From Gammaproteobacteria bacterium (GTDB lineage: Bacteria; Pseudomonadota; Gammaproteobacteria; Burkholderiales; SHXO01), in NCBI GenBank assembly GCA_041499435.1, contig JBGQKF010000002.1, positions 1 through 41,527 of the forward strand: 41,527 nucleotides of DNA, given 5' to 3'. The position numbers and the translations under genes are program-made. Below the pieces are notes generated by a model. That model ran no database searches, had not been told where the DNA came from, and was given only the letters and a program-made list of their open reading frames with translations. Below are positions 6,772 through 25,926 of the stretch, one piece after another. How positions within the stretch are numbered: position 1 is the stretch's first letter; every line of letters starts with the position of its first letter.

Positions 6772-7068
6772 TCAAACCTGAGGATATCCTAACTCGCGCT
6801 GATGGCGGATGCGTAGTACTCGAACGATATCGAACGAAGGGGAAAACCGATACAGCGCCAGAAACCCGGTCTTTCCTCTGGAGATCACGAGTTCCCGCAG
6901 GTCGTGTTTGGTGACACGACCGATCAAGGGGTGGTCGCCGAGGACTCCGATCGCCTGCCGTATGGGTGCTACCTGCGCAGCAGCAAGCTGAGGATCGTCT
7001 TTGGCGTAGGAGGTGAAGACCCGCTCAAAATCCTCCAGCGCGCGTTGGGAGAACGCTATTTGCGCCAA
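6772..7068 (-). CDS. type II toxin, RelE/ParE family
   Basis: 98 aa. The size and the C-terminal ...RELVISRGKTGFLALYRFSPSFDIVRVLRIRHQRE pattern are typical of ParE/RelE plasmid-stabilisation toxins. Overlaps the upstream RHH gene by 13 nt. Confidence 0.8.
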   Translation of the reverse strand: MAQIAFSQRALEDFERVFTSYAKDDPQLAAAQVAPIRQAIGVLGDHPLIGRVTKHDLRELVISRGKTGFLALYRFSPSFDIVRVLRIRHQRELGYPQV

Positions 7069-7346
7069 GCCTTGGGCCTTGGACGTCTGGCGCGCTTACC
7101 TTCGGCACGGGCGGTCATGTAGCGGAACACGTCCTCGGCCGCATAGTAAAGGCCCGTGTTATCCATGTCCCGCTCGGCTTCCAGAGCTTCGGCAAGGAAT
7201 GCCTCATAGCGCTCCGCGCGCGCGGTTTCATGCTCGATTGCTTCAAGCATGAATGCATGCGCAGACTTCCCGGCGGCCTGGGCCGCAGCGTCTACCCTCG
7301 CTTTGAGCTCGGGCGGGATTTTGAGACTGGTGGCTAGGGTCGACAT
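7056..7346 (-). CDS. type II antitoxin, ribbon-helix-helix (CopG/Arc/MetJ-like)
   Basis: 96 aa. N-terminal RHH-like LKIPPELKARVDAAAQAAGKSAHAFMLEAI. Lies immediately upstream of, and overlapping, the toxin gene. Confidence 0.78.
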   Translation of the reverse strand: MSTLATSLKIPPELKARVDAAAQAAGKSAHAFMLEAIEHETARAERYEAFLAEALEAERDMDNTGLYYAAEDVFRYMTARAEGKRARRPRPKAWRK

Positions 7347-8585: not shown

Positions 8586-9371
8586 ATGGATATTCTGCAA
8601 AAAGACACTTGGGCCGAGCTGCGCCGGCTGGCGATTGCCGAGGCTGAGCGTGAGCCGGTGTTGTCGGGACACTTGTACGACCTGGTGATCCGCCACCGCG
8701 GCTATCCCGAGGCGCTGGCCTATCTCATCGCTGCAAGCCTTGGCAATCAGGTCTTCAATGCGGTAGCGATGTCCGATCTGTGCAACGAAACGCTGGCGGG
8801 ACATCCCGACATCATCACCTCCAGCCTCTACGATCTCAATGCGGTGCGCGAGCGCGATCCGGCATGCGAAAACGTGCTCATTCCGTATCTCTACTACAAG
8901 GGCTTCAAGGGCCTGCAGGCCTATCGCATTGCGCACGCCTTGTGGGATGCTGGCCGCACGGGCGTCGCGCGCTTTATGCAGAGCCGCGTCACCGAGGTAT
9001 TCGCGATCGATATTCACCCAGCGGCGCGCGTGGGGCGCGGCGTGTTCATCGATCATGCGACGGGTATCGTCGTGGGCCAGACCAGCGTGATCGAGGATGA
9101 TGTGTCGATGCTGCAGTCGGTTACGCTCGGCGGCACAGGCAAGGAGACCGGCGATCGTCATCCCAAGATCCGTCGGGGTGTGATGATCGGCGCAGGCGCG
9201 AAGATCCTCGGCAACATCGAGATCGGCGAAGGTGCGAAGGTCGCTGCAGGCAGCGTGGTTACCAAGCCCGTTGCTCCGCATACCACCGTGGCCGGGGTGC
9301 CAGCCCATCCGGTAGGACGTCCAACCTCTGAGATTCCTGCTTATGACATGAATCAGGAGTTGGATGAGTAA
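8586..9371 (+). CDS. cysE: serine O-acetyltransferase
   Basis: 261 aa. SATase N-terminal helical domain, then left-handed beta-helix hexapeptide repeats (DIHPAARVGRGVFIDHATGIVVGQTSVIEDDVSMLQSVTLGG...IGAGAKILGNIEIGEGAKVAAGSVV). Confidence 0.9.
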   Translation: MDILQKDTWAELRRLAIAEAEREPVLSGHLYDLVIRHRGYPEALAYLIAASLGNQVFNAVAMSDLCNETLAGHPDIITSSLYDLNAVRERDPACENVLIPYLYYKGFKGLQAYRIAHALWDAGRTGVARFMQSRVTEVFAIDIHPAARVGRGVFIDHATGIVVGQTSVIEDDVSMLQSVTLGGTGKETGDRHPKIRRGVMIGAGAKILGNIEIGEGAKVAAGSVVTKPVAPHTTVAGVPAHPVGRPTSEIPAYDMNQELDE

Positions 9372-9375
9372 CGAG

Positions 9376-9553
9376 GTGAAAAGGTGAAGAAGTGAAAAGG
9401 TGAACAGGGGGCGCTTCATGTGCTGAAAGCGAAGGATGTGAAGGATGCCCTCGCCGCTAGTTATGATCGAGGCCTCGCTCGTGCAACGTCGCCTTCCATG
9501 TTCACCTTTTCACCTTTTCACCTCTTCACCTCTTCACCTCTTCACCTCTTCAC
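9376..9553. repeat. family-A inverted tandem-8-mer hairpin element
   Basis: Left arm 9376-9407: GTGAAAAG GTGAAGAA GTGAAAAG GTGAACAG. Right arm 9501-9553: TTCACCTT x2, TTCACCTC x4, TTCAC. By hand alignment the inner 32 nt of the arms pair at 29 of 32 positions around a loop of about 93 nt. Starts 5 nt after the cysE stop and ends 7 nt before ATG 9561. Confidence 0.9.
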
Positions 9554-9560
9554 GCTTCTC

Positions 9561-10304
9561 ATGCTCCTCCTCGACAACGTCTCCAAGTCATTCGGCGCAA
9601 AGCAAGCCCTGGCGCCGACGTCGCTCGCGCCGCAGCCGGGGAAGACCACCGTTCTAATCGGGCCGAGCGGCTGCGGCAAGTCTACGCTGCTGCGTCTGAT
9701 GATCGGGCTGATCACGCCTGACAGCGGCAGCGTCAAGGTCGATAGCGCACCGTTAACGGCAAGCAATGTCGACGAGGTGCGGCATCGCGTCGGCTATGTC
9801 ATACAGGATGGGGGACTGTTTCCGCACCTCACCGCGTATGGCAACGTCACCTTGCTGCCTCGCTATCTGCGCAAGGAATCCGGTTGGATCGAGCAGCGTG
9901 TCAACGAGCTCGCTGCTCTCGTGAGCATCTCACGCGATACGCTGTCACGCTATCCGGCCGGGCTTTCCGGGGGAGAGCGCCAGCGCGTGGCGCTGATGCG
10001 TGCGCTCATGCTCGACCCACAGTTGCTCCTGCTCGACGAGCCGCTCGCCGCGCTCGACCCGATCATCCGCCGCGGCCTGCAGACTGAGCTCAAGGAGATT
10101 TTCGCGCGGCTCAGAAAGACCGTGGTGCTGGTGACGCACGATCTGCATGAAGCGGCGTGGTTTGGGGATGAGATCGTGCTGATGCGCGAAGGGCACATCG
10201 TCCAGCGCGGTACGCTCGATGACTTGCTGTCGCGTCCGGGGGAACCGTTCGTGACGGAGTTCGTACATGCGCAGCGGGCGGATCCGAGATTGGCCGCTGC
10301 ATGA
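9561..10304 (+). CDS. ABC transporter ATP-binding protein (glycine betaine/choline/osmoprotectant type)
   Basis: Walker A GPSGCGKST, signature LSGGERQRV, Walker B LLLLDEP. Start chosen at ATG 9561 (MLLLDNVSKSFG). The upstream part of track ORF 9420..10304 is only the translation of the repeat (FTFSPFHLFTSSPLHLFT). No SD visible. Confidence 0.85.
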   Translation: MLLLDNVSKSFGAKQALAPTSLAPQPGKTTVLIGPSGCGKSTLLRLMIGLITPDSGSVKVDSAPLTASNVDEVRHRVGYVIQDGGLFPHLTAYGNVTLLPRYLRKESGWIEQRVNELAALVSISRDTLSRYPAGLSGGERQRVALMRALMLDPQLLLLDEPLAALDPIIRRGLQTELKEIFARLRKTVVLVTHDLHEAAWFGDEIVLMREGHIVQRGTLDDLLSRPGEPFVTEFVHAQRADPRLAAA

Positions 10305-11941
10305 GCCCTCAGCGTGCGACACCGCGCAGGCCACTCCCTCCCTTGCGAAGCGGGGGAGGGCTGGGGAGGGGGCAAGGTCCGGCGAGGTGGAGAGGTCCAG
10401 CGAGGGGGCGAGGTCGAGATTCGCGCGCACCGCGTCGCTTATGTCAAGCCGGCGCAGCACTTGCCGCTGTCCTGGGCTTGCTCGGCACCGGGGGCGCCAC
10501 TGCGGAACAGACCGAGCTCACCATCGGTTCCAAGCGCTTCACCGAGTCCTACATCCTGGGCGAGATCCTGCTCGCGAGCACACGCACGGCCGGTGTTCAG
10601 GCGCAGCACAAGCAGGGTCTGGGCAACACCGGCATTCTGTTCGAAGCGCTGAAAAGCGGCAGCATCGACCTTTACCCCGATTACACGGGCACCATCGGTC
10701 GCGAGCTGCTCAAATCGGACGCCTCGGATCTCGCATCGCTCAATCGGGGACTCGCTCCTCTGGGCCTTGGTGTAGCGGTGCCGCTGGGGTTCGAGAACAC
10801 GTACGCGCTCGCGATGCCCGATGCTAAGGCGCAGCAGCTGGGTGTGCGCACGATCGGCGATCTCGCGAAGCATGCCGAGCTCCGCCTGGGCCTGTCACAT
10901 GAATTCTTGAATCGCAGCGATGGCTGGCCTGGATTGCAGCGTACCTACGCGTTGCCGCAATCGCCCAGCGGACTTGATCATGGGCTGGCCTATGAAGCCC
11001 TCGCCGGCGGCCAGATCGATGTGATGGACATCTACTCCACCGACGCGAAGATCGCGAAGTACAAGCTGCGCGTGCTCGAGGACGACAAGCACTATTTCCC
11101 CGAGTATGCGGCCGTGCTGGTCTATCGGCTCGATGTTCCGCAGCGTTTCCCGGCGGCGTGGACGGCCATGCAGAAGTTGCAGGGAAAGATCAGTGCGGCT
11201 CAGATGGTGCAGATGAACGCGCAGGCCGAGCTGGAGAGCAAAGCCTTTCCAGAGATCGCAGCTCAGTTTCTGGCGCAGGCAGGTCCCGCTTCGACCGGGA
11301 ACTCAGCGCGCGCGAATTTCTGGTCACGGCTGTTCGGCGGTGACTTCTGGCGCCTGACCTGGCAGCACCTACTGCTGGTGTTCGCCTCGCTCGCTGCCGC
11401 GATCGCGATCGGCGTCCCGCTCGGTGTGTGGGCAGCGCGCTCGCCGCGGGCGGCACAGCCGGTTCTCACCGCGGTGGGTTTGATTCAAACCATTCCGTCG
11501 CTCGCGTTGCTGGCGTTTCTCATCCCGTTGCTGGGTGCGATCGGGATCTGGCCGGCACTGGTTGCGTTGTTTCTTTATGCGCTGTTGCCGATCGTGCGTA
11601 ACACCCACAGCGGCATCGTCGACATCGCACCGAACCTGCGAGAGTCGGCGCAGGCGCTGGGCATCGCGCCTGCCGCGCGACTGCGACTGGTGGAGCTGCC
11701 GCTCGCCGCCCGCTCGATTCTCGCCGGGATCAAGACCTCAGCGGTCATCAACGTCGGCACTGCAACGATCGCCGCGTTCATTGGTGCGGGAGGGTATGGC
11801 GAGCGCATCGTGACCGGCCTGGCTTTGAACGACAATCAGATGCTGCTCGCTGGCGCGATTCCCGCCGCGGTGCTCGCGCTGCTCGTGCATTGGAGCTTCG
11901 AGCTGCTCGATCGGCGGCTGATTCCGGCAGGTGTGCGGTAG
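10301..11941 (+). CDS. fused osmoprotectant ABC transporter substrate-binding protein / permease
   Basis: 546 aa. N-terminal OpuBC-like binding domain (TIGSKRFTESYILGEIL...DLYPDYTGT...). C-terminal BPD-type permease with about 5-6 hydrophobic segments. ATG 10301 overlaps the ATPase stop (ATGA). The first ~45 codons are repeat-derived, so the true start is uncertain. Confidence 0.8.
   Translation: MSPQRATPRRPLPPLRSGGGLGRGQGPARWRGPARGRGRDSRAPRRLCQAGAALAAVLGLLGTGGATAEQTELTIGSKRFTESYILGEILLASTRTAGVQAQHKQGLGNTGILFEALKSGSIDLYPDYTGTIGRELLKSDASDLASLNRGLAPLGLGVAVPLGFENTYALAMPDAKAQQLGVRTIGDLAKHAELRLGLSHEFLNRSDGWPGLQRTYALPQSPSGLDHGLAYEALAGGQIDVMDIYSTDAKIAKYKLRVLEDDKHYFPEYAAVLVYRLDVPQRFPAAWTAMQKLQGKISAAQMVQMNAQAELESKAFPEIAAQFLAQAGPASTGNSARANFWSRLFGGDFWRLTWQHLLLVFASLAAAIAIGVPLGVWAARSPRAAQPVLTAVGLIQTIPSLALLAFLIPLLGAIGIWPALVALFLYALLPIVRNTHSGIVDIAPNLRESAQALGIAPAARLRLVELPLAARSILAGIKTSAVINVGTATIAAFIGAGGYGERIVTGLALNDNQMLLAGAIPAAVLALLVHWSFELLDRRLIPAGVR
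10334..10377 (+). repeat. REP-type palindromic element (family C) inside the 5' part of the fused opu-like ORF
   Basis: CTCCCTCCCTTGCGAAGCGGGGGAGGGCTGGGGAGGGGGCAAGG, followed at 10378-10425 by degenerate GCGAGGT/GAGAGGT units resembling the 8-mer arrays. Confidence 0.9.
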
Positions 11942-11959
11942 CAGGACGGAGCTTGAAGG

Positions 11960-13132
11960 CTAGTGATCGCGATAGCGCAGCGTGTTCAGCATTGCGTTGG
12001 TGAGCTCGATGTCGGAGAGCGTCTGGTTGGCAACCTGAGTGAACATGCGGGTGCGGATGCGCGTGAGCTCACCGATCAGGAAATCCTTGCTGAGCCTGGA
12101 ATCGAGCAATGCCTGAGGATTGAGCCGGCTATCTCTGCCGAAGTTCTCGTACATGGCGGCTAGCCGCTGCTTCAACTGGTCATCATCGAGCTTTTTTTCG
12201 CCGGTGAACTGGTCGAACTTCTTCCGCAGCTGCGCGTACCCTTGTGCTTCGATGGCGGGCTTGACCTTGTCGTAGTGCTGTTGCGATTGCGCATCGAGGC
12301 GCGAGCGATCCAGGTGCAACATCGCCTCGCGGCCTTGCGGTCCGCCATTGACCATCATGAAGGTGAGCTCACGCGCGAAGAAATCGTAATCGGATTGCTT
12401 GGGCGTCGCGGCCTGGACCGCGGCGACGCTGTCCGGTGATCCGATCCACTTCAGAACTTCCAGCACGCGCTCGGTGAGCTCCGGATCTTTGAGCTTGGGC
12501 TGCAGGCGGCGCTCGCCCTCCAATCCGTACACGCCATAAAGAAAAGCGCACATCAGCGTGGGATTGAGCGTGAGCGATTGATCGGACATGAACACCCCCC
12601 GCTCGGTCGGCAGGAAGGTGCGATCGATGAACGGGAGCAGAGCGGGATCACCGGAGGTGGCCAGGCCTTGCGTCAGGCGAAACAATTGGTCGAAATTCGC
12701 CTGGACGATCGGCGCTTGCGTGTCGATCGCCAGCAGCGCCTGCAACGCACGTTTGCGGTCTTCGGCTCCGCCGTCGAGATAGAGAAAGGAGCCGACGTCG
12801 AGCAGCAGCAGTTGCGAGGGCTTCGGCCGGTTCAGCTCAGCGGCGAGCTCACGCCGCAATACCGGCATCGCCTCATCGTGATGCGCATGGTAGAACTGCC
12901 AGGCCTCGTCCATCCCCTCGTTGTGCTGGCGAAGTTGCTCCGGCGTCGCGTCCGCGGGCAATGAGCGCAGCTGCGAGAGCCGCTGCAGTGTTTCCTGTTC
13001 GGTGGATGCGGCTTGCGCGCTGCCGATGATGATCATCAGCCAGCCCGACAACAGCATCATCAGGGTGACGGTGTAGCCAGAGCTTCTGGCTCTGGCCGTG
13101 CGAAACAGTTGCAAGATAGATTGCTCCCTCAT
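11960..13132 (-). CDS. hypothetical protein with an N-terminal signal/anchor segment (function unknown)
   Basis: 390 aa. Non-shadow amino-acid composition. Hydrophobic N-terminus YTVTLMMLLSGWLMIIIGSAQA. Its start overlaps the upstream GST stop by 1 nt (TAATG). I recognise no family. Confidence 0.7.
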   Translation of the reverse strand: MREQSILQLFRTARARSSGYTVTLMMLLSGWLMIIIGSAQAASTEQETLQRLSQLRSLPADATPEQLRQHNEGMDEAWQFYHAHHDEAMPVLRRELAAELNRPKPSQLLLLDVGSFLYLDGGAEDRKRALQALLAIDTQAPIVQANFDQLFRLTQGLATSGDPALLPFIDRTFLPTERGVFMSDQSLTLNPTLMCAFLYGVYGLEGERRLQPKLKDPELTERVLEVLKWIGSPDSVAAVQAATPKQSDYDFFARELTFMMVNGGPQGREAMLHLDRSRLDAQSQQHYDKVKPAIEAQGYAQLRKKFDQFTGEKKLDDDQLKQRLAAMYENFGRDSRLNPQALLDSRLSKDFLIGELTRIRTRMFTQVANQTLSDIELTNAMLNTLRYRDH

Positions 13133-13797
13133 TATCGGTTGGCATAGGGCTCGTCGGCCGCAACAAACTCCGTTTCGGCCAGCGCTCCCGCGCGCCAGCG
13201 CAGCACACCGGGCAGGCCGAGCACCGCGTTGGCATAGTGCTGCGCGAGCGCAGGCAGCTCGACTGCATAGGTGACGAATCGCGAGACCACGGGCGCATAC
13301 ATCGCGTCCGCGCAGGTGAACGATCCGAACAGCAGATCGCCACCGCTGCCGAAGCGCTCACGGCACGATTCCCAGATGGATACGATGCGCGCGATATCGT
13401 TCTCGACGGCAGGCGTGCGGCCTTTTCCGGGATGCGCAGACCGGATATTCATCGGCATGTGGCGGCGCAGCTCACGGAAGCCGGCGTGCATCTCGGCACT
13501 GATCGAGCGTGCGACGCGCCTGGCATTCGCGGCGGTCGGCCACAGCAGCTTCTGCGGGTAGAGCTCCGCGATGGTTTCGCAGATCGCCAGAGAGTCCCAC
13601 ACCGGCTGTCCGTCGACCCACAGTACCGGCAGCTGGCCGTTCGGCGACAGTTCGCCAATCCCGGCGACCTTGCCGTCATCGGTGAACTTGAGCTGCACCT
13701 CAGTGAATGGGATGCCGGCCTGCGTGAGCAGGACCCAGGGACGCATGGACCACGACGAGTAGTTCTTGTTGGCGATGACGAGTTTGAGTTCGGGCAT
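13132..13797 (-). CDS. glutathione S-transferase family protein
   Basis: LKLVIANKNYSSWSMRPWVLL...LPVLWVDGQPVWDSLAICETI is a thioredoxin-like GST N-domain, followed by a helical C-domain. ATG 13797 preferred (AGGA about 9 nt upstream); ATG 13806 is the alternative. Confidence 0.85.
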   Translation of the reverse strand: MPELKLVIANKNYSSWSMRPWVLLTQAGIPFTEVQLKFTDDGKVAGIGELSPNGQLPVLWVDGQPVWDSLAICETIAELYPQKLLWPTAANARRVARSISAEMHAGFRELRRHMPMNIRSAHPGKGRTPAVENDIARIVSIWESCRERFGSGGDLLFGSFTCADAMYAPVVSRFVTYAVELPALAQHYANAVLGLPGVLRWRAGALAETEFVAADEPYANR

Positions 13798-13839
13798 GGC
13801 GTGCATCCTATCAGCGTTTACCTCAGGTGAGTACGCACG

Positions 13840-15225
13840 TCAACCCTGCAGCGGCTGCAGTTCGCCCAGTACGGTCGGGATCAGCTCGCTGACCGTTGGA
13901 TGAATGCGCACGCCTCGCTGGAGCGCTGTGTAAGGCAGCTTCGCGTAGATCGCGTCCAGCACGGTATGCACCACTTCATCGCCCGACGTGCCGAGGATGT
14001 GCATGCCGAGGATGCGCTTGCTGTCCGCTTCCACCAGCACTTTCATGAAGCCCTGCGTTTCGCCTTTCTCCACCGCGCGGGCGACGCGCGTCATCGGGCG
14101 CTTGCCGACCAGCGCGCGAATCCCGGCTTGTCTGATCTCCGCCTCGCTCATGCCGACGCGTCCGAACGGCGGATCCGTGAACAGCGCGTACGCGGTGACG
14201 CGGTCGCTCACCTTGCGGCCGGCATTCTCCAGCAGATTCCCGGCAATGATCTCGTAGTCGTTGTACGAGGTGTGCGTGAACGCGCCTTTGCCGTTGCAAT
14301 CGCCGAGCGCCCACACCTGCGGATTGGTGGTGCGCAATTCGTCGTCGACTTTGATGTAGCCTTTGTCGTCTACCGCGATGCCGGCTTTATCCAGGCCCAG
14401 ATCGTCGGTGTTCGGCACGCGTCCGACGGCAAGCAGCAGATGCGAGCCGCTCACCGTGGGGGCACCTTGCTGGCAGTCGACCTTCACGTCGATGCCGGTC
14501 CCGTTTCTCGCTACGGACAGGCACCTGGCATTGAGTCGGATTTCGACGCCTTCGCCTTCCAAGGCTTCTCGCACACCGGCGGATACATCTTCATCCTCGC
14601 GGGCGATCAGCCGTGGCGCCATCTCGATGACGGTGACGCGGCTGCCGAAGCGGCGAAATATCTGTCCGAACTCCAGCCCAACGTAGCTGCCGCCGACGAT
14701 GATCAGATGCTCGGGCAGGAAATCCACGTCCATCAAGCTGACGTTGGTGAGGTAAGGCACACTGTCGATGCCGGGCATCTTCGGTATTAGAGGACGGCCA
14801 CCGACATTGACGAAGATGCGCGGTGCGGTGAGGCGGTCGTCGTTCACGCGCACCGTCTGCGGCCCCTCGAAGCGCGCGTGGCCGAGGAAAACGCGTCCGT
14901 TCTCGAGATTGCGCATCCACTGTTCAATGCCGTGGTTGGAGCGGCCCACCACCGCGTCCTTGCGTGCTTTCACCTTCTTCATGTCGACGCGGATCGGACT
15001 GTCGATCTCTATGCCGTATTCGGTGGCCCGGCGTGCGAGATGTGCGGCGTAGGCGCTTGCCACCATGGTCTTAGTCGGTGTGCAGCCGTTGTTGACGCAG
15101 GTGCCGCCGAACTTGTCGCGTTCGATGACGGCGACTTTCATGCTGGCTTGCGACAGGTGTGCCGCCAGGGAGGGACCGGACTGGCCGGTGCCGATGATAA
15201 TCGCGGCGAAAGTGAGATCGGACAT
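13840..15225 (-). CDS. FAD-dependent pyridine nucleotide-disulfide oxidoreductase, RclA/MerA-like (class I)
   Basis: 461 aa. FAD fold IIIGTGQSG, redox CxxxxC GGTCVNNGCTPTK, NAD fold IVGGSYVGLEF, C-terminal dimerisation domain with HPTVSE. No NmerA domain and no C-terminal Cys pair. GGAGG RBS. Confidence 0.88.
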   Translation of the reverse strand: MSDLTFAAIIIGTGQSGPSLAAHLSQASMKVAVIERDKFGGTCVNNGCTPTKTMVASAYAAHLARRATEYGIEIDSPIRVDMKKVKARKDAVVGRSNHGIEQWMRNLENGRVFLGHARFEGPQTVRVNDDRLTAPRIFVNVGGRPLIPKMPGIDSVPYLTNVSLMDVDFLPEHLIIVGGSYVGLEFGQIFRRFGSRVTVIEMAPRLIAREDEDVSAGVREALEGEGVEIRLNARCLSVARNGTGIDVKVDCQQGAPTVSGSHLLLAVGRVPNTDDLGLDKAGIAVDDKGYIKVDDELRTTNPQVWALGDCNGKGAFTHTSYNDYEIIAGNLLENAGRKVSDRVTAYALFTDPPFGRVGMSEAEIRQAGIRALVGKRPMTRVARAVEKGETQGFMKVLVEADSKRILGMHILGTSGDEVVHTVLDAIYAKLPYTALQRGVRIHPTVSELIPTVLGELQPLQG

Positions 15226-15286
15226 GCTTGCCTCCGGGTTTCGGGTTGGTCGTGGAGGATGCCGCGGCCTTACGTCTCAATAGCAG

Positions 15287-15318
15287 GTGAAGAGGTGAAG
15301 AAGTAAAAAGGTGAACAG
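15287..15318. repeat. solo arm of a family-A 8-mer array
   Basis: GTGAAGAG GTGAAGAA GTAAAAAG GTGAACAG. The inner junction GTGAACAGGAAAGCGTCCTA resembles GTGAACACGGAAGCGATCTA at 28441. I found no complementary TTCACC arm downstream. Confidence 0.8.
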
Positions 15319-15471
15319 GAAAGCGTCCTAGCCGATGGGACTGCCCGACACGTTCGATAGTTCAGCGCCGGCGGGCGTCGTTCAGAGCGGACTGGACTGG
15401 CTCAGGCCCGCGAACTCCGCCTCCGTGCAGCATCATCGACAGGTGTCAGGAGCCGCGTGATTGCCAGCGAT

Positions 15472-16428
15472 TCAACGATGGACGGGCGTGTCCTCGAACC
15501 GGAAGCCCATCGTCCGGCAGTGATAGTGCAAGCCGCCGTCTTGAACGATGAGCCAGTTCGCGGGCGCAGTGCCGCGATTGTGGTGCGAATGCACGCTGGT
15601 GGGCGGTGTCACCATGGTGACGAACGGCTGCCAGTCTTTGCGCGTGTCATTGACCATCGAGTAGCAGCGATCACCGTTGATGGCGAGCGACACCGCCACC
15701 GATGCGTGGCTGTGGGCGACCTGGTCTTCGCCGGGTCCGAGCTGATTCATCGCCAGCGTAAGCGTCGGAGAGATGTTGCGGCGATCCTCGAGGCGCTCGC
15801 TCGCGAACACGACTGCAAGACCCGCGACGCGCTGCCCTTTGAGTCGCGCACGTGCGCGATCGAGCTCGTCGGCGATCGTGGTGGCGGGGAAATGCGTCGC
15901 TTCGATCAGCGATTCGTCCATCGCGGCTGGCGCGACACGCTCGAAGTCGAGCTGAGGCTGGTTGGTGACCAGCCAGAGGACGCTGTCGCTCTTAGGGCTC
16001 GCCAACTCGATCGGCCGACCGCCGGGAAGCGAAAAGACATCGCCTGAGCTCCAGGCAATCGTGTCGGTGCCCTGGACCGCGCGGCCCGATCCAGCGATCA
16101 CGTAGGCGAGCAAGACGCTCGCTCGCGGCTCGACCATGAGCGACTCGCCGGCGCGTATGCGCGCATACGCGGCGAGGACCAGCGGCGAAGTCGCTGGAAA
16201 CGCAATGCCCAACGCGGCGCTTTGATCGCACTGAATAAGCCTGGTGCCGGTCGCGGGATCGAACGCGGCGTCGCGTTCAGCTACAAAGCTCGCGGCCGGC
16301 ACGTCCGGATAGACGATGTTGAACGCGTTGCCCGAATCGAAATAGCGCGCGCGGCGTGTGTAGGGTGTCTGCGCCTGGGCTGCGTCATCGAATGCCGTGT
16401 CCGCAGCGGCTTTCGCCATGCTGGTCAT
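15472..16428 (-). CDS. bicupin protein (gentisate 1,2-dioxygenase-like fold; specificity unknown)
   Basis: Two cupin-like halves. The metal-ligand-like His cluster occurs only in the C-terminal half (AHSHASVAVSLAINGD...VHSHHN). Start set at ATG 16428, 6 nt after AGGAGG; the track start 16446 is an upstream GTG. Confidence 0.72.
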   Translation of the reverse strand: MTSMAKAAADTAFDDAAQAQTPYTRRARYFDSGNAFNIVYPDVPAASFVAERDAAFDPATGTRLIQCDQSAALGIAFPATSPLVLAAYARIRAGESLMVEPRASVLLAYVIAGSGRAVQGTDTIAWSSGDVFSLPGGRPIELASPKSDSVLWLVTNQPQLDFERVAPAAMDESLIEATHFPATTIADELDRARARLKGQRVAGLAVVFASERLEDRRNISPTLTLAMNQLGPGEDQVAHSHASVAVSLAINGDRCYSMVNDTRKDWQPFVTMVTPPTSVHSHHNRGTAPANWLIVQDGGLHYHCRTMGFRFEDTPVHR

Positions 16429-16533
16429 GCTTATCCTCCTGGTCACCAGTTCGCTGCCTCATCGTTCCATAGTAAGTCAATCTACAAGGATAGGAGGCCT
16501 GTCCGCCCCTGTCGCCTCCTTCGGGAGCACACA

Positions 16534-18084
16534 TCATGCCGTCTGACGCGGCGTCTTCGCGATATACCCATAATAAGCGTTGCTGCGCTCGATGCCTTGC
16601 CGCGTGTACTCTGCCTTGATCGCGGTGAGCTTGTCTGCGGCAAAAGCCGGCCCCTGCGCCTGGCCGACGTTGTACTTGTAGAGGCGTGCCGAGTTCAATC
16701 CAAAGATCGCGCGCTTGGTCGGGCTGTCCGGACCGCCCAGCGGCTGCCAGCCCTGCTTCTTGCGCATGTCTTCCGGGATCTCGATGCGCCGCATGGCCTC
16801 GATCTGCCACTGGGGCGAGCCCCAGAATACCGAGTCGGTACCCCAGACGACGTGGTCCGCTCCCATCATGTGGACCAACTGGCCCAGCAGCGCCGTGCAG
16901 AATCGCGGGTTGGTCACGCAGGTGCTGGCGAATGTCGTGCCGATCTCTGCGTAGACGTTGGAGACGCCGTACTGTTCGGGGATGCGTGCGAGGTCGGTGA
17001 CCCAGCGGATGTAGCCCTTCTGCTCGAACTCGGCCATCTCCTGTTCCGGCGTATTCCATGCGAATGGACGGATCGCGGAGTGATAGATGACGAAGTTCAT
17101 CTGCGGCCAATCCTTTGCCGCCTGGCCCACGTCATCCGGAGTCGCGTGCCGCCAGGTGTCGGGGAATGCGTTCTCGTAATCCTTGGGCATGATGCCCTTG
17201 TGGATGCAGATGATATTGATGCCCGCCTTGAGCGCCTTCTCATAGAACGGATACATCAGCTTTTCGTCGTCCAGGCGCCAGGAGAAGTTGGACGGTGGAT
17301 AGAACGGCGCGCCCAGCGTGTAGGCTTTCCAGCTTGCCGGCCGCAGCGTCGCGATGGCGCGGTCGACCTCGTCCATCCAATTCTGGTATTTGGGCGTAAT
17401 GACGAAGTGCCCGAGCATGCGCCGACTGCCTGCGACGTTGTTGATCGAATCGACCGCCTGCTTGATGTTGTCGTTGGTGAGGAACCACCAGCCCGGATCA
17501 TCGCTGGGCGCCCCGGACAGCAGCGCCACCTTGGTATCGCTGTCCAGGAACATCTCCTTCACGTAGTTCTCGAACTTGAAGAGCGCCAGGCTGATTGGCA
17601 TTCCCTGCAGCATGCCGGGATTGGATCCGGACTCGATCGCCCACTTGACGCCGCCGAGCAGGCCTTCCTTGTCGAAGCCGTCGTGCACGAAGTGGGTCTG
17701 AACGTCGAAGATGAACTGCCCGGCGAGTCCTTTCGCGCGCTCGGCGGCGACATCCAGATCGCGCGCCTCCGCCTCGCTCACGCCGAAGATCGGACCGAAC
17801 ACCTTGTTCATGGCCAGGAATGCCATCGCCATGCCCGCGCTGCTGGCGAGAAAGCGCCGGCGGTCCACCTCCAGCCTCAAAGCCTGTTGGTCGGCCAGTT
17901 CCTTGATCAGGCCTTCGACCTGCCGCTGCTGATCAGTCTGTGGCGGTGGGTTGTACTCGCCGCTGGATACCACTTGTGTGGGCACCGGCGAGCGGAACGC
18001 ATTGCGCTGAGCGGGCAGGGTGTCTTCCAGCTCGCGATCGCTCATGTGAACGCCGAAGATCGGGTGTCTGGGTTGCTGTGCCAT
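16534..18084 (-). CDS. Tat-exported amidohydrolase-family metal-dependent hydrolase
   Basis: Start at ATG 18084 after GGAGGAGA. Twin-arginine signal DRRRFLASSAGMAMAFLA. TIM-barrel amidohydrolase-like body with FDVQTHF near the N-terminus and a late WGTDS motif. Confidence 0.8.
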   Translation of the reverse strand: MAQQPRHPIFGVHMSDRELEDTLPAQRNAFRSPVPTQVVSSGEYNPPPQTDQQRQVEGLIKELADQQALRLEVDRRRFLASSAGMAMAFLAMNKVFGPIFGVSEAEARDLDVAAERAKGLAGQFIFDVQTHFVHDGFDKEGLLGGVKWAIESGSNPGMLQGMPISLALFKFENYVKEMFLDSDTKVALLSGAPSDDPGWWFLTNDNIKQAVDSINNVAGSRRMLGHFVITPKYQNWMDEVDRAIATLRPASWKAYTLGAPFYPPSNFSWRLDDEKLMYPFYEKALKAGINIICIHKGIMPKDYENAFPDTWRHATPDDVGQAAKDWPQMNFVIYHSAIRPFAWNTPEQEMAEFEQKGYIRWVTDLARIPEQYGVSNVYAEIGTTFASTCVTNPRFCTALLGQLVHMMGADHVVWGTDSVFWGSPQWQIEAMRRIEIPEDMRKKQGWQPLGGPDSPTKRAIFGLNSARLYKYNVGQAQGPAFAADKLTAIKAEYTRQGIERSNAYYGYIAKTPRQTA

Positions 18085-18316
18085 GGGTCTCCTCCGTCGG
18101 TGCGTAATACTCCATCCCGATGCTACAGTACTCGCCGCGAATGCGAACTGCAACGAGGGTCACTGGTGGTCGATGATCGGCGGCCGAGGATTATGCGATG
18201 GCACGAGACGCGCGCCGGTGCGGTGCCCGGATCCGGGGAAACCGGTTGGCACCGTTCAGCGCTCGCTCGGGCCCGCGCGCAAACCGAGTCGAGCGCTGCT
18301 CGGGCGGTGCCGCGCT

Positions 18317-18817
18317 TCAGACCTGCACTGCTGGCTTCTGCGACTTGGCGGCCTGCCACTTGTCGAGCTTCGCGCGCGCCCCGTTGGTTGCGGGATCCAT
18401 CGCCCGGTCGTGACCGGCCAGTTTCGCAGTCAGCTCGATCACGTAACCGTTCGGATCGCGGAAGTAGATCGAATGGATGAAGCCGTGATCGGAGATGCCG
18501 CGCGTTTCGATCCCGCGCTCGCGTCCCTTCGCCATCATCGGTTTCAACACGGTCTCATCGACCTCCAGCGCGATATGCAGATCGAAGTCGTGCTGCGTCT
18601 TGAACTCGAACGGCATATCGGGCGCCTCGAAAAACGCCAGATAGGAATGATCGTCAAGCTCGTAGAACGTATGCAGGGTCTGAGTGGGGCGCCCGCTCTT
18701 CGTCTCCTTGATCTCGAGGGTGCCGGCGAGGCGCAGTCCGAGAAAGTCTTCATAGAACTTGCGCGTCTCCTCGGAATCGCGGCAGCGGTAGGCGTTGTGA
18801 TGAAGTTTCTTGAGCAC
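18317..18817 (-). CDS. VOC (glyoxalase/bleomycin resistance/extradiol dioxygenase) family protein
   Basis: 166 aa. LHHNAYRCRDSEETRKFYEDFLGL...HIALEV...HSIYFRDPNGYVIEL is the paired beta-alpha-beta-beta-beta VOC pattern. GTG start 7 nt after GGAGG, which overlaps the upstream GST stop. Confidence 0.85.
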   Translation of the reverse strand: MLKKLHHNAYRCRDSEETRKFYEDFLGLRLAGTLEIKETKSGRPTQTLHTFYELDDHSYLAFFEAPDMPFEFKTQHDFDLHIALEVDETVLKPMMAKGRERGIETRGISDHGFIHSIYFRDPNGYVIELTAKLAGHDRAMDPATNGARAKLDKWQAAKSQKPAVQV

Positions 18818-18830
18818 GGCAAAACCTCCT

Positions 18831-19505
18831 CTAGAGGACTTCCATCTTGTTGTCCTTCAGCGTGGACGCGTAACCGTAAATGACTTCATGGACCTTGTTC
18901 CAGCTGTTGAGCTTCTTCATGTTGCCAAGCCAGCGCGTCACGTTCGGGTAGGCGGAATAGTCGCAGCGGATCAAATCCCCGAGCCCGACGAAGGGGGCGC
19001 CCAGGTAGTCGGCGATGGTGATTTGATCACCGCACAGGTAGGCATTCTTCGGCCCGAGGATATGCTGGTCGAGAACCTTCAGCCAGCCTTGAGCTCTCTC
19101 CTTTCCCCAGGCCAGAGTTGCCGCCTGCACGTCGTCGCCTGGCCGCTTGTGCGTCGGAAAAATCTGCGGGTAGACGAAGCCGTAGGCAAAATCGCGGCAC
19201 AACTGCGTGTTGATCCAATCCATGCGCTCGTTCACGCGCGCGCGTTGCCGCAGATCGCGTGGATAGGCCGGCGAATTGATCTTCTCGGCGAGATACTTGA
19301 GGATCGCCGAGCTCTCCGTCAAGCGGAAGTCGCCGTCTTCGAGCACGGGCACCAGATGATTGGGATTGATCGCCTCGTAGGGAGGCTTGAAGTGCTCGCC
19401 CGTAAACAGGTCAACCACCTGAAACTCAGCATCGATCCCGTTCTCGCGAGCGAACAGCATGAGCGGACGGCTGGTGGTTGAAGCGGGATGGTAATAGATC
19501 TTCAT
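18831..19505 (-). CDS. glutathione S-transferase
   Basis: Start ATG 19505 (MKIYYHPASTTSRP...). LVPVLEDGDFRLTESSAILKYL is the GSH-binding N-domain. RBS GGAGAGGAGA upstream. The longer track ORF (to 19625) has no support. Confidence 0.88.
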   Translation of the reverse strand: MKIYYHPASTTSRPLMLFARENGIDAEFQVVDLFTGEHFKPPYEAINPNHLVPVLEDGDFRLTESSAILKYLAEKINSPAYPRDLRQRARVNERMDWINTQLCRDFAYGFVYPQIFPTHKRPGDDVQAATLAWGKERAQGWLKVLDQHILGPKNAYLCGDQITIADYLGAPFVGLGDLIRCDYSAYPNVTRWLGNMKKLNSWNKVHEVIYGYASTLKDNKMEVL

Positions 19506-19621
19506 GGTTTGTCTTCTCCTCTCCTTGTGCGATGCAATCCTGGCGGCGCCAGCTGTAGCGGCCCCTGGGATGCCTGGAGGGTCAAGTCTAACCTCACGAG
19601 ACGGGATTGTCCTGTCCGGCC

Positions 19622-20776
19622 TCAAAACAGGCGAGCGCTCGCCAAATCAGCGCCGGCGCGTAACGAGCGCAGCTTTTCCCACACCACCTCTTCGGCGACC
19701 ATGCCCACGCCGGTGGAAGTATCGAAGCCGCAGTCGGTGCCCGCGAGCACGCGGTGCGGATCGCCGATGGCCTGGGCAACCAGCTCGATCCGATCGGCCA
19801 CGACCTCCGGATGCTCGACGTAGTTGGTGGTCGTATCGATCACGCCTGCGACCACCAGCCAGTCGCGGGGGAACGGATGCCTCAGCAGGCAGCGGTGCTC
19901 GTGGGCGTGGCGCGGGTTGGCCATCGACAGGACCAGCGCCCCGACACGCGCCTGGTACAGATGCGGCAACAGATCATCGAGCGGCACGTCGAAGTTGTGC
20001 GGGCCCTCGTAGTTGCCCCAGCACACGTGCAGCCGCACCTGCTCGCGCGGCACATTCGCCAGGGCGCGATTGATGGCGGAGATTGTGAGGTCGAGAAACT
20101 CGAGGAACTCTGCGAGCGGCCGGCCGGCGAACTGGCGGTGCCGCTCCATCGCCAGATCCGGACCATCGATCTGCAGCACGTAGCTGCGCGCGGCAATCGC
20201 TTCGTACTCGGTCTTGAGCGCTTCTGCAACGGCATTCACGTACTGCGACATGGAGGCGTAGTAGTCGTTCTGCATGCCGCAGGCGACGATGCCCGGTGAG
20301 GGCGCAGTCCAGAAGGTCTCGAGGAAGCGCCGCGGTTGCTCCTCCAGGATCTTGCGATAGTCGGCGAGCTCCTGGTCCAGCGCGCCGCGATCGACGTAGC
20401 GCACCTCGCCCAGTGCGCGCGGTGGCGCGGTGTGCAGGCTCTTGCGCGCATGCGTCTGGAATAGCTCGCGAAACGTCGGATAGCTCGCCACGTCCTGCGC
20501 CGGCGGTCGCTGACCTTCGCCGCCGAACCCGCTCATGCGATAGCGCACGTAGGTGAAGAAGCTCTCGCGCGGCTGTTCGCCATCGTTGCCGACATCGATT
20601 CCACACTCGAGCTGGCGCTGCACGGCGCGACGTGTCGCCTGGTCCACGGTGTCAGCGAGCAGCGCTTGATCCACCACCTCGCCGCGATTGACGCGCAGCT
20701 GCAAATCCACCAGCGCCTTGGGTCGCGGCAGGCTGCCCGTGTGTGTCGTCAAGATTCGCGATTCGCTGCGCTGCAT
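19622..20776 (-). CDS. cobalamin-independent methionine synthase (MetE C-terminal domain)-like protein
   Basis: 384 aa. ILTTHTGSLPRP N-terminus and a late HVCWGN...H motif region, characteristic of the MetE-catalytic-domain / Meth_synt_2 family of Zn-dependent alkyl transferases. Confidence 0.78.
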   Translation of the reverse strand: MQRSESRILTTHTGSLPRPKALVDLQLRVNRGEVVDQALLADTVDQATRRAVQRQLECGIDVGNDGEQPRESFFTYVRYRMSGFGGEGQRPPAQDVASYPTFRELFQTHARKSLHTAPPRALGEVRYVDRGALDQELADYRKILEEQPRRFLETFWTAPSPGIVACGMQNDYYASMSQYVNAVAEALKTEYEAIAARSYVLQIDGPDLAMERHRQFAGRPLAEFLEFLDLTISAINRALANVPREQVRLHVCWGNYEGPHNFDVPLDDLLPHLYQARVGALVLSMANPRHAHEHRCLLRHPFPRDWLVVAGVIDTTTNYVEHPEVVADRIELVAQAIGDPHRVLAGTDCGFDTSTGVGMVAEEVVWEKLRSLRAGADLASARLF

Positions 20777-20793
20777 CGCGCTTGGCTCCCCGT

Positions 20794-20820
20794 TAACCTG
20801 GATAATTCATGAGGGACTCG
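20794..20820. repeat. copy A of the 27-nt TAGCCYGGATAWKTCATGARG motif
   Basis: TAACCTGGATAATTCATGAGGGACTCG, 18 nt upstream of the MetE-like start (20776). Closely matches 22329-22355 (TAGCCCGGATATTTCATGAAGGACTCG). Confidence 0.8.
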
Positions 20821-20849
20821 TATCGGGCGTTCGGGTCCGCATGCGACGG

Positions 20850-21302
20850 TCAAAACCCGGCCTCGGTGAACGACAGCGCTGTCGAGCCGTCGTCGCGCTG
20901 CATAACCAGAGCGTGCCGCCCCAGGATCATCATGTTGACCTTGCGCAACGCCTCCAGAAACTTATGCTCTTTGTCCATCAGCTCGGGCGGACCCCGCCTG
21001 CGCTCCCCCACCACACCGAGCGCGCCCCATGCCAGTTTACCGTCTGCCCCCAGCTTGTAAGTGCCGGCGAAGCGGTTCACCGCCGCGAAGCCCGCAACTT
21101 GTCCTCCAGGACCGAAGTTGATGGTCATTTTTGCATCGACGTGCATGATGTCAGGCTCGCCATCGACGACAATGGACTGCAGCTCCCACTCGCGTTGATA
21201 GAGCTTGTCGACGTCCCCTTGGCCTATCACCGTTGCCCCGGGGCTCGCGCAACCGGTCAACAGCAACAACAGCATCCAGGCGTTGCTACGCATCGTCGTC
21301 AT
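20850..21302 (-). CDS. META-domain lipoprotein (HslJ-like)
   Basis: 150 aa. Lipobox LLLLTGC. REWELQSIVVDGEP...INFGPGGQVAGFAAVNRFAGTY...MDKEHKFLEAL matches the META/HslJ pattern. Confidence 0.8.
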   Translation of the reverse strand: MTTMRSNAWMLLLLLTGCASPGATVIGQGDVDKLYQREWELQSIVVDGEPDIMHVDAKMTINFGPGGQVAGFAAVNRFAGTYKLGADGKLAWGALGVVGERRRGPPELMDKEHKFLEALRKVNMMILGRHALVMQRDDGSTALSFTEAGF

Positions 21303-21328
21303 GTGAGAGGTCCCCGGTCACTACCGCT

Positions 21329-22327
21329 TCAGATCAATGCAAAGGCTTGCGCCAGCAGCTCGTAGGAACGCAGCCGGCTCCCGTAGTCGCCGGTGATGGT
21401 GATCACCATCACTTCGTCGGCTTGAAATTGCTCCTGCAGCTCGAGCAGGCGCGCTTTCACACCCTGCGGCGTTCCGATCACCGCGCGGGCGCGCTCTCGC
21501 TGGATCAACATGCGATCGGCATCGCTGAGAGGCTGTGCCAACGCCTGTTCAACGGTGGCGATCGGCGCATCCTGTCCGCGGGTCATCTGCAAACGCCGTA
21601 GATCGATACTCACCGCCAGACGCTCCGCTTCCTCGTGCGTGGGCGCACAGATCGCGAAGACAGCGACCATCGAGTACGGCTGCGACTCGCGTCCGGACGG
21701 CCGGTAACCTTCGCGATACGCGCGCGTTACCGCTGGGCCGCCGTGCGCGCTGATGAAATGCGCGAACGAAAAGCGCAGGCCGAGATATGCCGCCAGCGAG
21801 CCGCTGTAGTCGGAAGAGCCCAGCAGCCACACTTGCGGCGAGCTCGGACCGGCCGGCATCGCCTTCACTGCATGGAAAGGATAATCCGCGGGCAGGCTGT
21901 CGTCGAGCCAGCCGATGAGCTCCTGCACCTGCGTGGGGAAACGTTCTTCGCCGGCGAACGCGTCGGCGTTCATTGCCTGCGCGACCAGCATCGTGCCTCC
22001 CGGTGCGCGGCCGATGCCCAGATCGATGCGGCCGGGGAACAGCGCCTCATACATGCGGAATACTTCCGCCACTTTGAGCGGCGAGTAGTAGGGCAGGAGC
22101 ACGCCGCCGGTGCCCGCGCGAATGCGCGTTGTGGCCGTTGCCACCTGGCCCAGCAGAATCTCGGGACACGGATCTGCGAGGCCCTGCATCGCATGATGCT
22201 CAGCGAGCCAATAGCGGTGATAGCCGAGTCGATCCGCTGCGCGCGCGAGCTCGATGGTCGCATGAATCGCATCCGCCGGCGTATGGCCGCTGATGATCGG
22301 GGATTGGTCGAGGATGGAAAGGCGCAT
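21329..22327 (-). CDS. LLM-class (luciferase-like) flavin-dependent oxidoreductase
   Basis: MRLSILDQSPIISG...YHRYWLAEHH...GGVLLPYYSPLKVAE is the YhbW-type LLM family. Start set at ATG 22327. An in-frame ATG at 22345 lies inside the adjacent inverted repeat. Confidence 0.85.
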   Translation of the reverse strand: MRLSILDQSPIISGHTPADAIHATIELARAADRLGYHRYWLAEHHAMQGLADPCPEILLGQVATATTRIRAGTGGVLLPYYSPLKVAEVFRMYEALFPGRIDLGIGRAPGGTMLVAQAMNADAFAGEERFPTQVQELIGWLDDSLPADYPFHAVKAMPAGPSSPQVWLLGSSDYSGSLAAYLGLRFSFAHFISAHGGPAVTRAYREGYRPSGRESQPYSMVAVFAICAPTHEEAERLAVSIDLRRLQMTRGQDAPIATVEQALAQPLSDADRMLIQRERARAVIGTPQGVKARLLELQEQFQADEVMVITITGDYGSRLRSYELLAQAFALI

Positions 22328-22328
22328 G

Positions 22329-22574
22329 TAGCCCGGATATTTCATGAAGGACTCGGGATGATCGCGAGGCGATTTGCGAGGCAGTTTGGGCTCGACCGTC
22401 GCGGCCAATAGCCGTGACTATTGGCAAGACGGGCATGCCCAAAATGACCGCAAAGCGTCCGCGAGCGCCCGAGTAGCCCGGCGCAACGAACTGTACCAAG
22501 CTCGACTTGCTGCAAGTGTCCTCGCATCAAAGCAGCCATGAATCCGGGGGCGTCTTCATGAAATATCCGGGCTA
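22329..22574. repeat. 246-bp MITE-like unit bounded by 21-bp perfect inverted repeats
   Basis: TAGCCCGGATATTTCATGAAG at 22329-22349 and its exact reverse complement at 22554-22574. TA at both tips. Internal perfect 8-bp hairpin GCCAATAG-CCGTGA-CTATTGGC at 22404-22425. No ORF of note inside. Confidence 0.6.
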
Positions 22575-23777: not shown

Positions 23778-23795
23778 GAGACGAAGGGGACGCAA

Positions 23796-23967
23796 GTTAA
23801 AAGGTGAATAGGCGAAAAAGGTGAAGAGGTGAACAGGTGAAAAGGTGAACTGTGACGACGGTGAGTAGGAACGACCTACGGTTGTAGGCGTGTTCACCGC
23901 TCCTGTTCACTTCTTCCGGTTCACCTGTTCACCTCTTCACCTGTTCACCTCTTCACTTCCTTCACTT
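23796..23967. repeat. family-A inverted tandem-8-mer hairpin element (largest copy)
   Basis: Left arm 23796-23850 (GTTAAAAG GTGAATAG GCGAAAAAG GTGAAGAG GTGAACAG GTGAAAAG GTGAAC). 41-nt core with GTAGG/CCTAC stems. Right arm 23892-23967 (GTTCACC...GTTCACCT CTTCACCT GTTCACCT CTTCACTT CCTTCACTT). Confidence 0.9.
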
Positions 23968-24636: not shown

Positions 24637-24758
24637 AGAATCTTTCGACGGGAAAGGCGCTAGTTTACGACGCGATGCGCAGTGCTGCAGTCGCCCCGCG
24701 CGGGAACTATGGGAACGCGGGCGCAATCCACCCTTCTCTCGAGAAGGGGAAACGAGCG

Positions 24759-25778: not shown

Positions 25779-25926
25779 ATGAGGGAAATGCGTGAAGGAG
25801 GTGAAGGAAGTGAAGGAGGTGAGCCCCCTCTCCCCGACCCTCTCCCCCGGTGATGGGGGAGAGGGAGAATTTAGGCGGCGCGACTGCGCCTGCCCTTCAC
25901 GCATTCCCTCCTTCCCTCCTTCTCTG
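25775..25926. repeat. family-B composite element: 9-mer GTGAAGGAR array + REP hairpin + inverted outer arm
   Basis: GTGAAGGAG GTGAAGGAA GTGAAGGAG GTGAG at 25792-25823. REP hairpin CCCTCTCCCCC-GGTGAT-GGGGGAGAGGG at 25838-25865. Outer IR GAGGGAAATGCGTGAAGG (25781-25798) versus CCTTCACGCATTCCCTC (25894-25910). Confidence 0.9.

Follow-up and report, generated by a model that had tools for sequence, protein, structure and literature searches.

Facing arrays of complementary octamers at gene ends in a Burkholderiales contig: architecture, turnover and a possible role as RNA stems

The contig JBGQKF010000002.1 (assembly GCA_041499435.1) of a gammaproteobacterium assigned to the Burkholderiales carries, in the gap between cysE and the gene of an ABC ATPase, a purine-rich and a pyrimidine-rich array of octamers that face each other across a unique spacer. 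This element and its other copies were analysed in the window, i.e., the whole stretch of 41,527 nt (positions 1 to 41,527 of the forward strand). Coordinates are positions within this window unless a comparison contig, designated by an L and a number, is named. The lineage is uncultured and betaproteobacterium-like; the GC content is 0.63, and the best named homologue of cysE was found at 69 %. Longest open reading frame (ORF) gene calling failed in the GC-rich DNA and was replaced by a rule based on the GC content of third codon positions (GC3), which reproduces the database calls; genes were defined by means of Pfam, database gene calls, and orthologues.

At the cysE-ABC gap (locus 1), the purine (R) arm occupies positions 9374-9408 on the + strand and is made up of four GGTGAANA units, which at 9376-9407 read GTGAAAAG GTGAAGAA GTGAAAAG GTGAACAG; Tandem Repeats Finder (TRF) gave a period of 8 and 4.4 copies. 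The pyrimidine (Y) arm at 9501-9553 (+) contains 6.6 TTCACCTY units (TRF period 8, 6.6 copies, 97 % matches, unit TTCACCTC). Both arrays had been described in the original prediction, made from the letters of the sequence, and were found by inspection and by TRF exactly as described; only the spacer, at 9409-9500, is 92 nt rather than about 93 nt long. It is unlike the spacers of the other copies. The arms can pair in two registers, 9376-9408 with 9521-9553 (88 % over 33 nt), which agrees with the 29 of 32 pairs that had been counted by hand, and 9368-9408 with 9505-9545 (88 % over 41 nt). As had been stated, the element fills the entire gap. The R arm begins 3 nt beyond the cysE stop codon (9369-9371, +), and the Y arm ends at 9553, 7 nt upstream of the ATG of the ABC ATPase gene at 9561 (+). 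The R arm has TGA in all three frames. All three frames are open in the Y arm, as a consequence of which naive ORF lists run through it.

The architecture recurs at two more paired loci and in one solo arm, as had been predicted, and all four sites proved to be intergenic when the genes were defined by Pfam and orthology. Locus 2 separates the gene of a secreted protein of 224 aa from the gene of an MFS transporter, both on the - strand. Its R arm in the + reading, which is the Y arm on the sense (-) strand, is located at 23799-23850 and ends 21 nt before the GTG of the transporter gene at 23777; the spacer (23851-23918) is followed by the Y arm in the + reading, i.e., the R arm on the sense strand (23919-23965). 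The TGA stop codon of the upstream 224-aa gene (23962-23964) is itself part of the outermost repeat unit. At locus 3, the R arm (28416-28446, +) starts 11 nt after the stop of a prolyl oligopeptidase gene (28404), the spacer (28447-28522) contains an inner CCGCGAG-C-CTCGCGG hairpin, and the Y arm (28523-28560, +) ends 1 nt before the stop (28562) of a convergent gene for a 183-aa protein. The solo arm at 15285-15319 (+), with 4.4 GGTGAAGA-type units, is located between the stop of a cupin gene and the start of a Pyr_redox gene, both on the - strand, and no complementary partner arm was detected within 300 nt on either side.

Allowing up to two mismatches, GGTGAANAGGTGAA was matched 28 times in the window as against 0.44 times expected, a number reached in none of 100 shuffles. 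Folding of the three paired loci as RNA, which the original prediction had proposed, gave z-scores of -5.5 (locus 1), -8.2 (locus 2), and -4.4 (locus 3). The recurrence of the element is thus non-random and far beyond chance. Only the arms are common to these loci, which are referred to here as family A; the three spacers are mutually unrelated, with 39 % column identity, the random level.

Comparison with close strains (99.6 % and 98.4 % identity) revealed exact indels of 16 nt, or two units, in the arrays of an otherwise identical element. The Y arm of locus 1 is two units shorter in L117 than in the window, and the solo arm at 15285-15319 is two units longer in L118. The spacer next to the solo arm (15320-15470) is strongly diverged between strains, whereas the arrays carry no substitutions. 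The arrays were thus shown to gain and lose whole units by replication slippage. Two independent contigs of close relatives stop at or inside the purine arm of locus 1, at positions that correspond to 9396 (L119) and 9369 (L120) of the window, which suggests that such arrays end short-read metagenome assemblies.

In more distant relatives, the gene order purM-cysE-ABC-OpuAC is conserved while the content of the cysE-ABC gap varies. L201 (80 % identity) has short GTGAAG arms (z -3.3), and in L203 (73 %), GGGAAGGA/TCCTTCCC units make up a stem of 33 bp (z -7.6). The 3' end of cysE reads GGAGGAGTGA in L201 and GGAGGGTGA in L202. In the gap behind the prolyl oligopeptidase gene, elements are present in the window, in L121, and in L123, with a different core in each: In L121 (83 % protein identity), short GTGAA and TTCAC arms flank a CCCTCTCCC...GGGGGAGGGG hairpin, and in L123 (70 %), long GTGAA/GTGAT arms enclose a BoxC-like core. 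No element was found in this gap in L122 (73 %). The orthologue of locus 2 in L202 is a gap of 22 nt, with a single GAGGTGA before the MFS start where the window has the array. Locus 2 of the window looks like an expansion of a junction between a stop codon and a Shine-Dalgarno (SD) sequence. Taken over several lineages, these gaps show that the structure is retained while the sequence turns over.

A survey with an exact three-unit pattern yielded at least 116 loci, many of which have the design of a purine arm, a variable middle, and a pyrimidine arm. Among the 80 matches listed, 33 were from Bacteroidota, 14 from Acidobacteriota, nine from Burkholderiales, six each from Nitrospirota and Planctomycetota, and 12 from others. 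The intergenic bias that had been expected was clear: 148 of 171 arrays were intergenic, and another 15 were situated within 150 nt of the beginning of ORFs that had been called too long, in loci that are 83 % coding. Among the paired arrays, the purine arm came first in 50 cases and second in 2. The gene context could be assigned for 21 paired elements, of which 15 were situated between same-direction genes, five between convergent genes, and one apparently between divergent genes. The last case was locus 2 of the window and was discarded as a gene-calling error, Pfam and orthology placing both genes on the - strand. Paired elements were always located after a gene end, and none lay between divergent genes. 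The stop codon of the upstream ORF is often a TGA that belongs to the array (offsets -4, -12, and -20) or lies not more than 15 nt away from it. When arrays were compared across loci, the invariant part of the unit was GGTGAA and not a GGAGG core. Among the 657 ORFs beside 116 arrays, no gene family recurs.

The distribution is lineage-specific, because among 80 unrelated loci picked by protein homology (627 kb), only one had a GTGAA array, and its carrier is a relative. The same design was seen with other units (GGGGAAAC, GAATGCG, and GTGATGA) in unrelated soil contigs, where an array, a spacer, and an inverted complementary array follow each other in L161 (1267-1376), L188 (10232-10367), and L199 (658-806); with AT-rich units, the arms are in the opposite order (L145, 1508-1606; L162, 11533-11729). 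A pattern scan of viral contigs gave eight matches and was uninformative. In Prevotella-type genomes, the octamers were seen inside a larger unit that is itself repeated in tandem and measures about 44 nt, GGCGTTAGCCAT-(TTTTCACC)3-4-TTTAAAGG, which reads AAAGGTGAAAAG..ATGGCTAACGCC on the opposite strand (L006, 800-960; L015, 2040-2260; L037, 7780-7960; L076, 3070-3250; L099, 6850-7150; and the viral contig L212). In L013 (6839-7081; Burkholderiales) and L090 (3449-3626), both of which carry a three-unit array, a GTGAAGGAGGTGAAGG... element stands before seemingly orthologous genes (ATGATCTCCCCGACC... and ATGTCCTCCCCGCCC..., respectively), and the upstream ORF appears to end within the array.

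The window also contains two elements of a sister family (family B). The first, at 25770-25929 between the convergent DUF481 and DUF3460 genes, consists of an R arm of GTGAAGGAG 9-mers that contain AAGGAGGTGA (25770-25822), a BoxC/TMECO-like core (25838-25865), and a Y arm of TTCCCTCC units (approximately 25893-25929). The second, at 41344-41527 downstream of an AcrB-type gene (stop at 41311), runs into the window end and is truncated there; it has an R arm (41344-41396), BoxC/TMECO-like cores, and a Y arm (41507-41527). The tandem GTGAAGGAG arrays at 25792-25822 and 41365-41396 give the full SD consensus AAGGAGGTGA four times. Four of the six occurrences of GGAGGTGA in the window, where 1.2 are expected, lie inside family B arrays. 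In the orthologous family B element of L121 (1-140), the arms are of the GCCTCAC type. BoxC/PIT/TMECO sequences are intergenic, strain-variable motifs of the form CCCTCNCCC N3-6 GGGNGAGGG N3 GGGNGAGGG, to which no function has been assigned (PMC4666352). The CCCTCNCCC...GGGNGAGGG core is shared by family B and by the GTGAA-armed elements of L013, L020, L123, and L203, while octamer arms are absent from the BoxC definition. The family A loci are without the core, a relaxed pattern matching in the window only at 25838-25865 and 41412-41439, both in family B.

With a probability of about 0.4, and hence tentatively, the elements are regarded here as lineage-amplified simple-repeat hairpins that have grown by slippage, were apparently seeded at SD/stop junctions, and likely act in RNA as 3'-end, partial-terminator, or processing stems. 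In the window the unit is GGTGAANA / TNTTCACC, with complementary arrays as the two arms and a unique middle in each copy. Seeding of the purine arm at the junction of the upstream stop codon and an SD would account for its likeness to an SD as well as for the TGAs in it, and is suggested by the single GAGGTGA in the 22-nt gap of L202 at locus 2 and by the cysE ends of L201 and L202. The arms may remain complementary because pairing is selected for, or because one arm is copied from the other through template switching. A transcript running through the element would form a stem of 30-45 bp that begins at the upstream stop codon and in all likelihood serves to end the upstream message, to insulate it, or to process it; a barrier to 3'-exonucleases, a U-tract-independent partial terminator, and an RNase III site are candidate roles. 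The SD-like repeats of the element itself would stay masked by the stem.

The purine-first order would make sense in termination, as a weak hybrid of pyrimidine RNA and purine DNA would occupy the polymerase while a strong purine:pyrimidine stem forms in the RNA. The thermodynamics of such hybrids is established, and the argument, applied to these elements, would hold in both directions. In same-direction pairs, one foot of the stem would hold the stop codon of the upstream gene and the other foot the start of the downstream gene, which has no SD. Translation termination would accordingly open the stem at its foot and make the downstream start accessible.

A number of observations weigh against this interpretation. 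Full termination at locus 1 would silence the ABC operon, as the element fills the gap and a scan found no promoter-like site at it. Because of this, and because of the conserved purM-cysE-ABC-OpuAC synteny, termination there would have to be partial, or the role would be one of processing or coupling. The hairpin is dispensable, since at the same gap it is weak in L202 (75 %; z -2.1), where a pyrimidine array makes up most of the gap, and no hairpin is present in L204 (77 %; z +0.3). The arms of locus 1 are unbalanced, with 4 versus 6.6 units. Away from contig ends, 87 of 139 arrays are solo and occur in every gene context, including divergent gaps, and the fold energy shows no sense-strand bias (eight sense, five antisense, three ties). 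Cores of the BoxC/PIT type had no terminator activity in E. coli (PMC4666352). In favour of a structure that is kept, the two arms of one element share bases at variable positions more often than arms of different elements (0.64 vs. 0.52; 0 of 5000 permutations reached the observed value), but a preference for certain units at the level of the genome confounds this test of covariation. Each of the roles proposed in RNA is, moreover, inferred from the DNA sequence.

Some of these points would follow naturally if the elements were neutral by-products of slippage and template switching, which would grow repeats around existing small hairpins that are tolerated in gaps and have no role in the cell. 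This is a possible explanation, albeit on balance an unlikely one. It is in agreement with a unit number that is polymorphic between strains, with orthologous gaps that gain, lose, or change their unit, with unbalanced arms and the many solo arrays in all contexts, and with fold energies that do not prefer the sense strand. The same design built from arbitrary units in unrelated soil contigs and the presence of a GTGAA array in only one of 80 unrelated homologous loci also fit. The ratio of 50:2 in favour of purine-first order and the absence of paired elements from divergent gaps, however, require the added assumption that stop codons, or terminator hairpins already present, were the sites of seeding. 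Arrays without substitutions between strains, next to a strongly diverged spacer (15320-15470), and a strong cysE-ABC stem that is kept in three lineages despite different units likewise argue against neutrality. That the elements are non-autonomous mobile elements, either miniature inverted-repeat transposable elements (MITEs) or sequences of the repetitive extragenic palindromic (REP)/REPIN type moved by a transposase or a REP-associated tyrosine transposase (RAYT), is very improbable, although they are multi-copy, intergenic, and hairpin-forming and a BoxC-like insertion is clear at 10305-10477, where the genes of relatives overlap. The interiors of the copies are unrelated, no target duplications were seen upon inspection of the flanks of loci 1-3, the GTAG-type REP palindrome is not enriched, and no transposase-like gene recurs among the 657 neighbouring ORFs. 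In addition, the same orthologous gaps are occupied across 70-83 % protein identity. The arrays could also bind proteins at the DNA level, as an operator-like or nucleoid-protein site, or serve as a contingency locus for phase variation by copy number. Identical tandem sites whose number varies between strains, and a pyrimidine arm just upstream of start codons, would suit such a function, which is nevertheless given very little credence: With a period of 8 bp, consecutive sites do not lie on one face of the helix, the neighbourhood contains no conserved gene of a regulator, the neighbours are housekeeping rather than surface or virulence genes, and a cruciform is unlikely to be extruded across spacers of 70-90 nt.

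A role on the ribosome, as a putative standby, sponge, or occlusion device, was among the ideas put forward in the original prediction, which had pointed out that the arms copy an SD and the 16S tail. GAGGTGA is complementary to the UCACCUC of the canonical bacterial 16S 3' tail. With the canonical tail GAUCACCUCCUUA, from which that of the host may differ, GAGGTGA pairs over 7 nt and the AAGGAGGTGA of family B over 10 nt. The likeness as such is real, the sister family having the full AAGGAGGTGA, but units that do not resemble an SD build the same design. The ATG at 9561 does lack an SD, as had been claimed (anti-SD duplex energy +1.9 kcal/mol). Its lack was rejected as a special feature because 36 of 70 called genes of the lineage are likewise without a 4-nt SD core, which is present in the other 34. 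If an anti-SD mimic masks an array of SDs, the element might mediate coupling or reinitiation over about 190 nt or form a split ribosome-binding site, the start being unmasked or bridged by a terminating ribosome or by the 16S tail as it invades the outermost unit; we consider this improbable. It would account for the GAGGTGA and AAGGAGGTGA content, for the stop and start at the stem feet in loci 1 and 2 and in L203, and for the MFS gene having an adjacent GAGGTGA in L202 but, in the window, nothing other than the array. In the Burkholderiales-type same-direction cases, seven of eight downstream starts are located 7-21 nt past the pyrimidine arm and have no SD, a count that is only marginal (p ~0.035), as half of the lineage's genes are SD-less. 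Five of the 21 paired elements lie between convergent genes and serve no start, the most conserved bases are GGTGAA and not GGAGG, and the arrays are abundant in Bacteroidota (33 among the 80 matches listed). Bacteroidota make little use of SD sequences. Since other units form the same design, the occurrence across phyla is weakened as proof of a universal partner. A more elaborate version would be more doubtful still: a convergently evolved gene-junction device in which the arm beside the stop codon offers SD sites and three-frame stops, the other arm masks it as a mimic of the 16S tail, and the helix brings the upstream stop close to an SD-less downstream start. A ribosome that terminates, or a 16S tail that displaces the outermost mimic unit, would in this version effect a transfer to the next gene over about 190 nt, as helix-bridged coupling or, just as doubtfully, as a split ribosome-binding site in which the number of units would tune the strength. 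Most simply, the SD look goes back to the SD/stop junctions at which the arrays were seeded and to a purine-rich composition. A ribosome-directed role is not required by the architecture.

The hairpin arrays resemble several known classes of repeats. REP sequences and bacterial interspersed mosaic elements (BIMEs) stabilise upstream mRNA and affect termination. The elements described here share with REP/BIME/REPIN sequences (PMC3116915 for REPINs) that they are high-copy extragenic hairpins which follow the ends of genes, the neighbours being convergent or in the same direction. Their arms, however, are tandem octamers without an internal palindrome, in contrast to the 20-40-nt palindromic REP unit with its GTAG head, and their interiors are not conserved. 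The occurrence of GTAGG words in two spacers had raised the possibility of a REP, which was rejected as GTAGGAGC-like REP words are not enriched in the window (34 vs. 26.8 expected). No RAYT was found among the window genes, and no gene family recurred near the arrays in 116 loci. A MITE was rejected on account of the spacers, which are at the random level of 39 % column identity. An empty site was looked for at locus 2 in L202, where the 22-nt gap is not a clean one and holds the likely seed GAGGTGA. The proposal in the original prediction of a selfish MITE-like repeat was therefore not borne out, interiors being unrelated and no transposase recurring. Its exclusion of clustered regularly interspaced short palindromic repeats (CRISPR) was upheld, as the 8-nt units stand head to tail, in contrast to the required 21-48-nt repeats with unique spacers of about the same length. 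The elements are not MITEs, REP/REPINs, or CRISPRs, because only the arms are common, REP words are not enriched, and no gene family recurs.

Cyanobacterial short tandemly repeated repetitive (STRR) heptamers form comparable short tandem intergenic arrays. Long simple sequence repeats (LSSRs), with units of 5-11 nt, are summarised as mostly intergenic tandem 7-8-mers, as especially frequent in Betaproteobacteria (Burkholderia), cyanobacteria, and Xanthomonas, and as attributed to polymerase slippage (PMC4679880, citing Mrazek et al. 2007). The arrays of the window qualify as LSSRs in that short units are arranged in tandem, mostly in intergenic regions, and are polymorphic in number: The period is 8, the 4.4 and 6.6 copies are beyond chance, and whole-unit variation is seen in L117 and L118. 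LSSRs as summarised in that source differ from the elements described here, in which complementary arrays face each other, form a long hairpin, have purine-first polarity, and abut stop and start codons. TAACTGA heptamers of Beggiatoaceae, cyanobacteria, and Bacteroidetes often lie only a few nt from start codons, and a role in translation has been proposed for them (PMC4679880). Like these heptamers, the octamer arrays occur in scattered phyla and have stops in every frame in one orientation while being open in the other. The unit is a different one, and TAACTGA arrays have no hairpin partner; they are almost always direct, with 169 direct versus one indirect repeat in BOGUAY (PMC4679880).

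With bidirectional intrinsic terminators, the elements have in common a hairpin after genes that has an A- or purine-rich 5' and a U- or pyrimidine-rich 3' flank on both strands. They differ in their stems of 30-45 bp, their loops of 70-90 nt, and the lack of a U-tract. A canonical intrinsic terminator (GC-rich stem of 5-20 bp, loop of 3-8 nt, and U-tract) was rejected as a candidate because a consensus scan misses the elements: In 9000-28999, the scan gave 15 sites versus 13.8 expected and none at the element gaps. Rfam 15 had no match in the window at the gathering threshold, rRNA genes included, and at E ≤ 1 only generic miRNA-precursor hairpins were matched, far below threshold. A full-text literature search with the array strings returned chance primer matches only. 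The view that no described repeat family is involved could be maintained in the light of these searches and of the failed REP and MITE tests. In the part of the literature that was searched, no description was found of complementary-array pairing, fixed purine-first polarity, stop-codon fusion, or, in one family, an exact SD consensus.

Several other features of the window were noted. A short solo array at 29089-29108 (-), with 2.5 copies of CTCCTTCC on the + strand and the GGAAGGAG type on the - strand, lies in a divergent gap and occupies the SD position of the 183-aa gene (-). Between the stop of the ABC ATPase gene and the OpuAC domain, an insert at 10305-10477 carries a BoxC/TMECO-like motif (CTCCCTCCC..GGGGGAGGG CTG GGGAGGGGG) and an 18-mer tandem repeat (10366-10415) and is in frame from an ATG at 10301. 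The two genes overlap or abut in L201, L202, and L203, the junction in L201 being ATGA. The insert may be translated as a 59-aa Arg/Gly-rich extension before the signal peptide. A perfect inverted repeat of 21 nt, TAGCCCGGATATTTCATGAAG / CTTCATGAAATATCCGGGCTA, is located at 22329-22349 and 22554-22574, with its arms 204 nt apart, near the junction of a luciferase-like gene and the MFS gene; a similar word, CTTCATGAAATATCCGGCTTAGCC, was seen in L202 at 12820-13075. Upstream of purM, a small ParE-toxin gene and an adjacent gene for a 96-aa partner form a toxin-antitoxin pair (6772-7346).

On the practical side, these arrays break metagenome assemblies, L119 and L120 both ending at an array, and a pyrimidine arm that is open in all frames misleads ORF callers. 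If the stems act on transcripts, they would represent a common, unannotated form of operon punctuation in GC-rich, SD-poor bacteria without canonical terminators, and slippage would allow it to be tuned. Three features, namely the order with the purine arm first, the repeat units fused to stop codons, and the exact SD consensus of family B, offer testable handles on the birth of simple repeats at gene junctions and on whether such junction repeats are read by ribosomes or by RNA polymerase.

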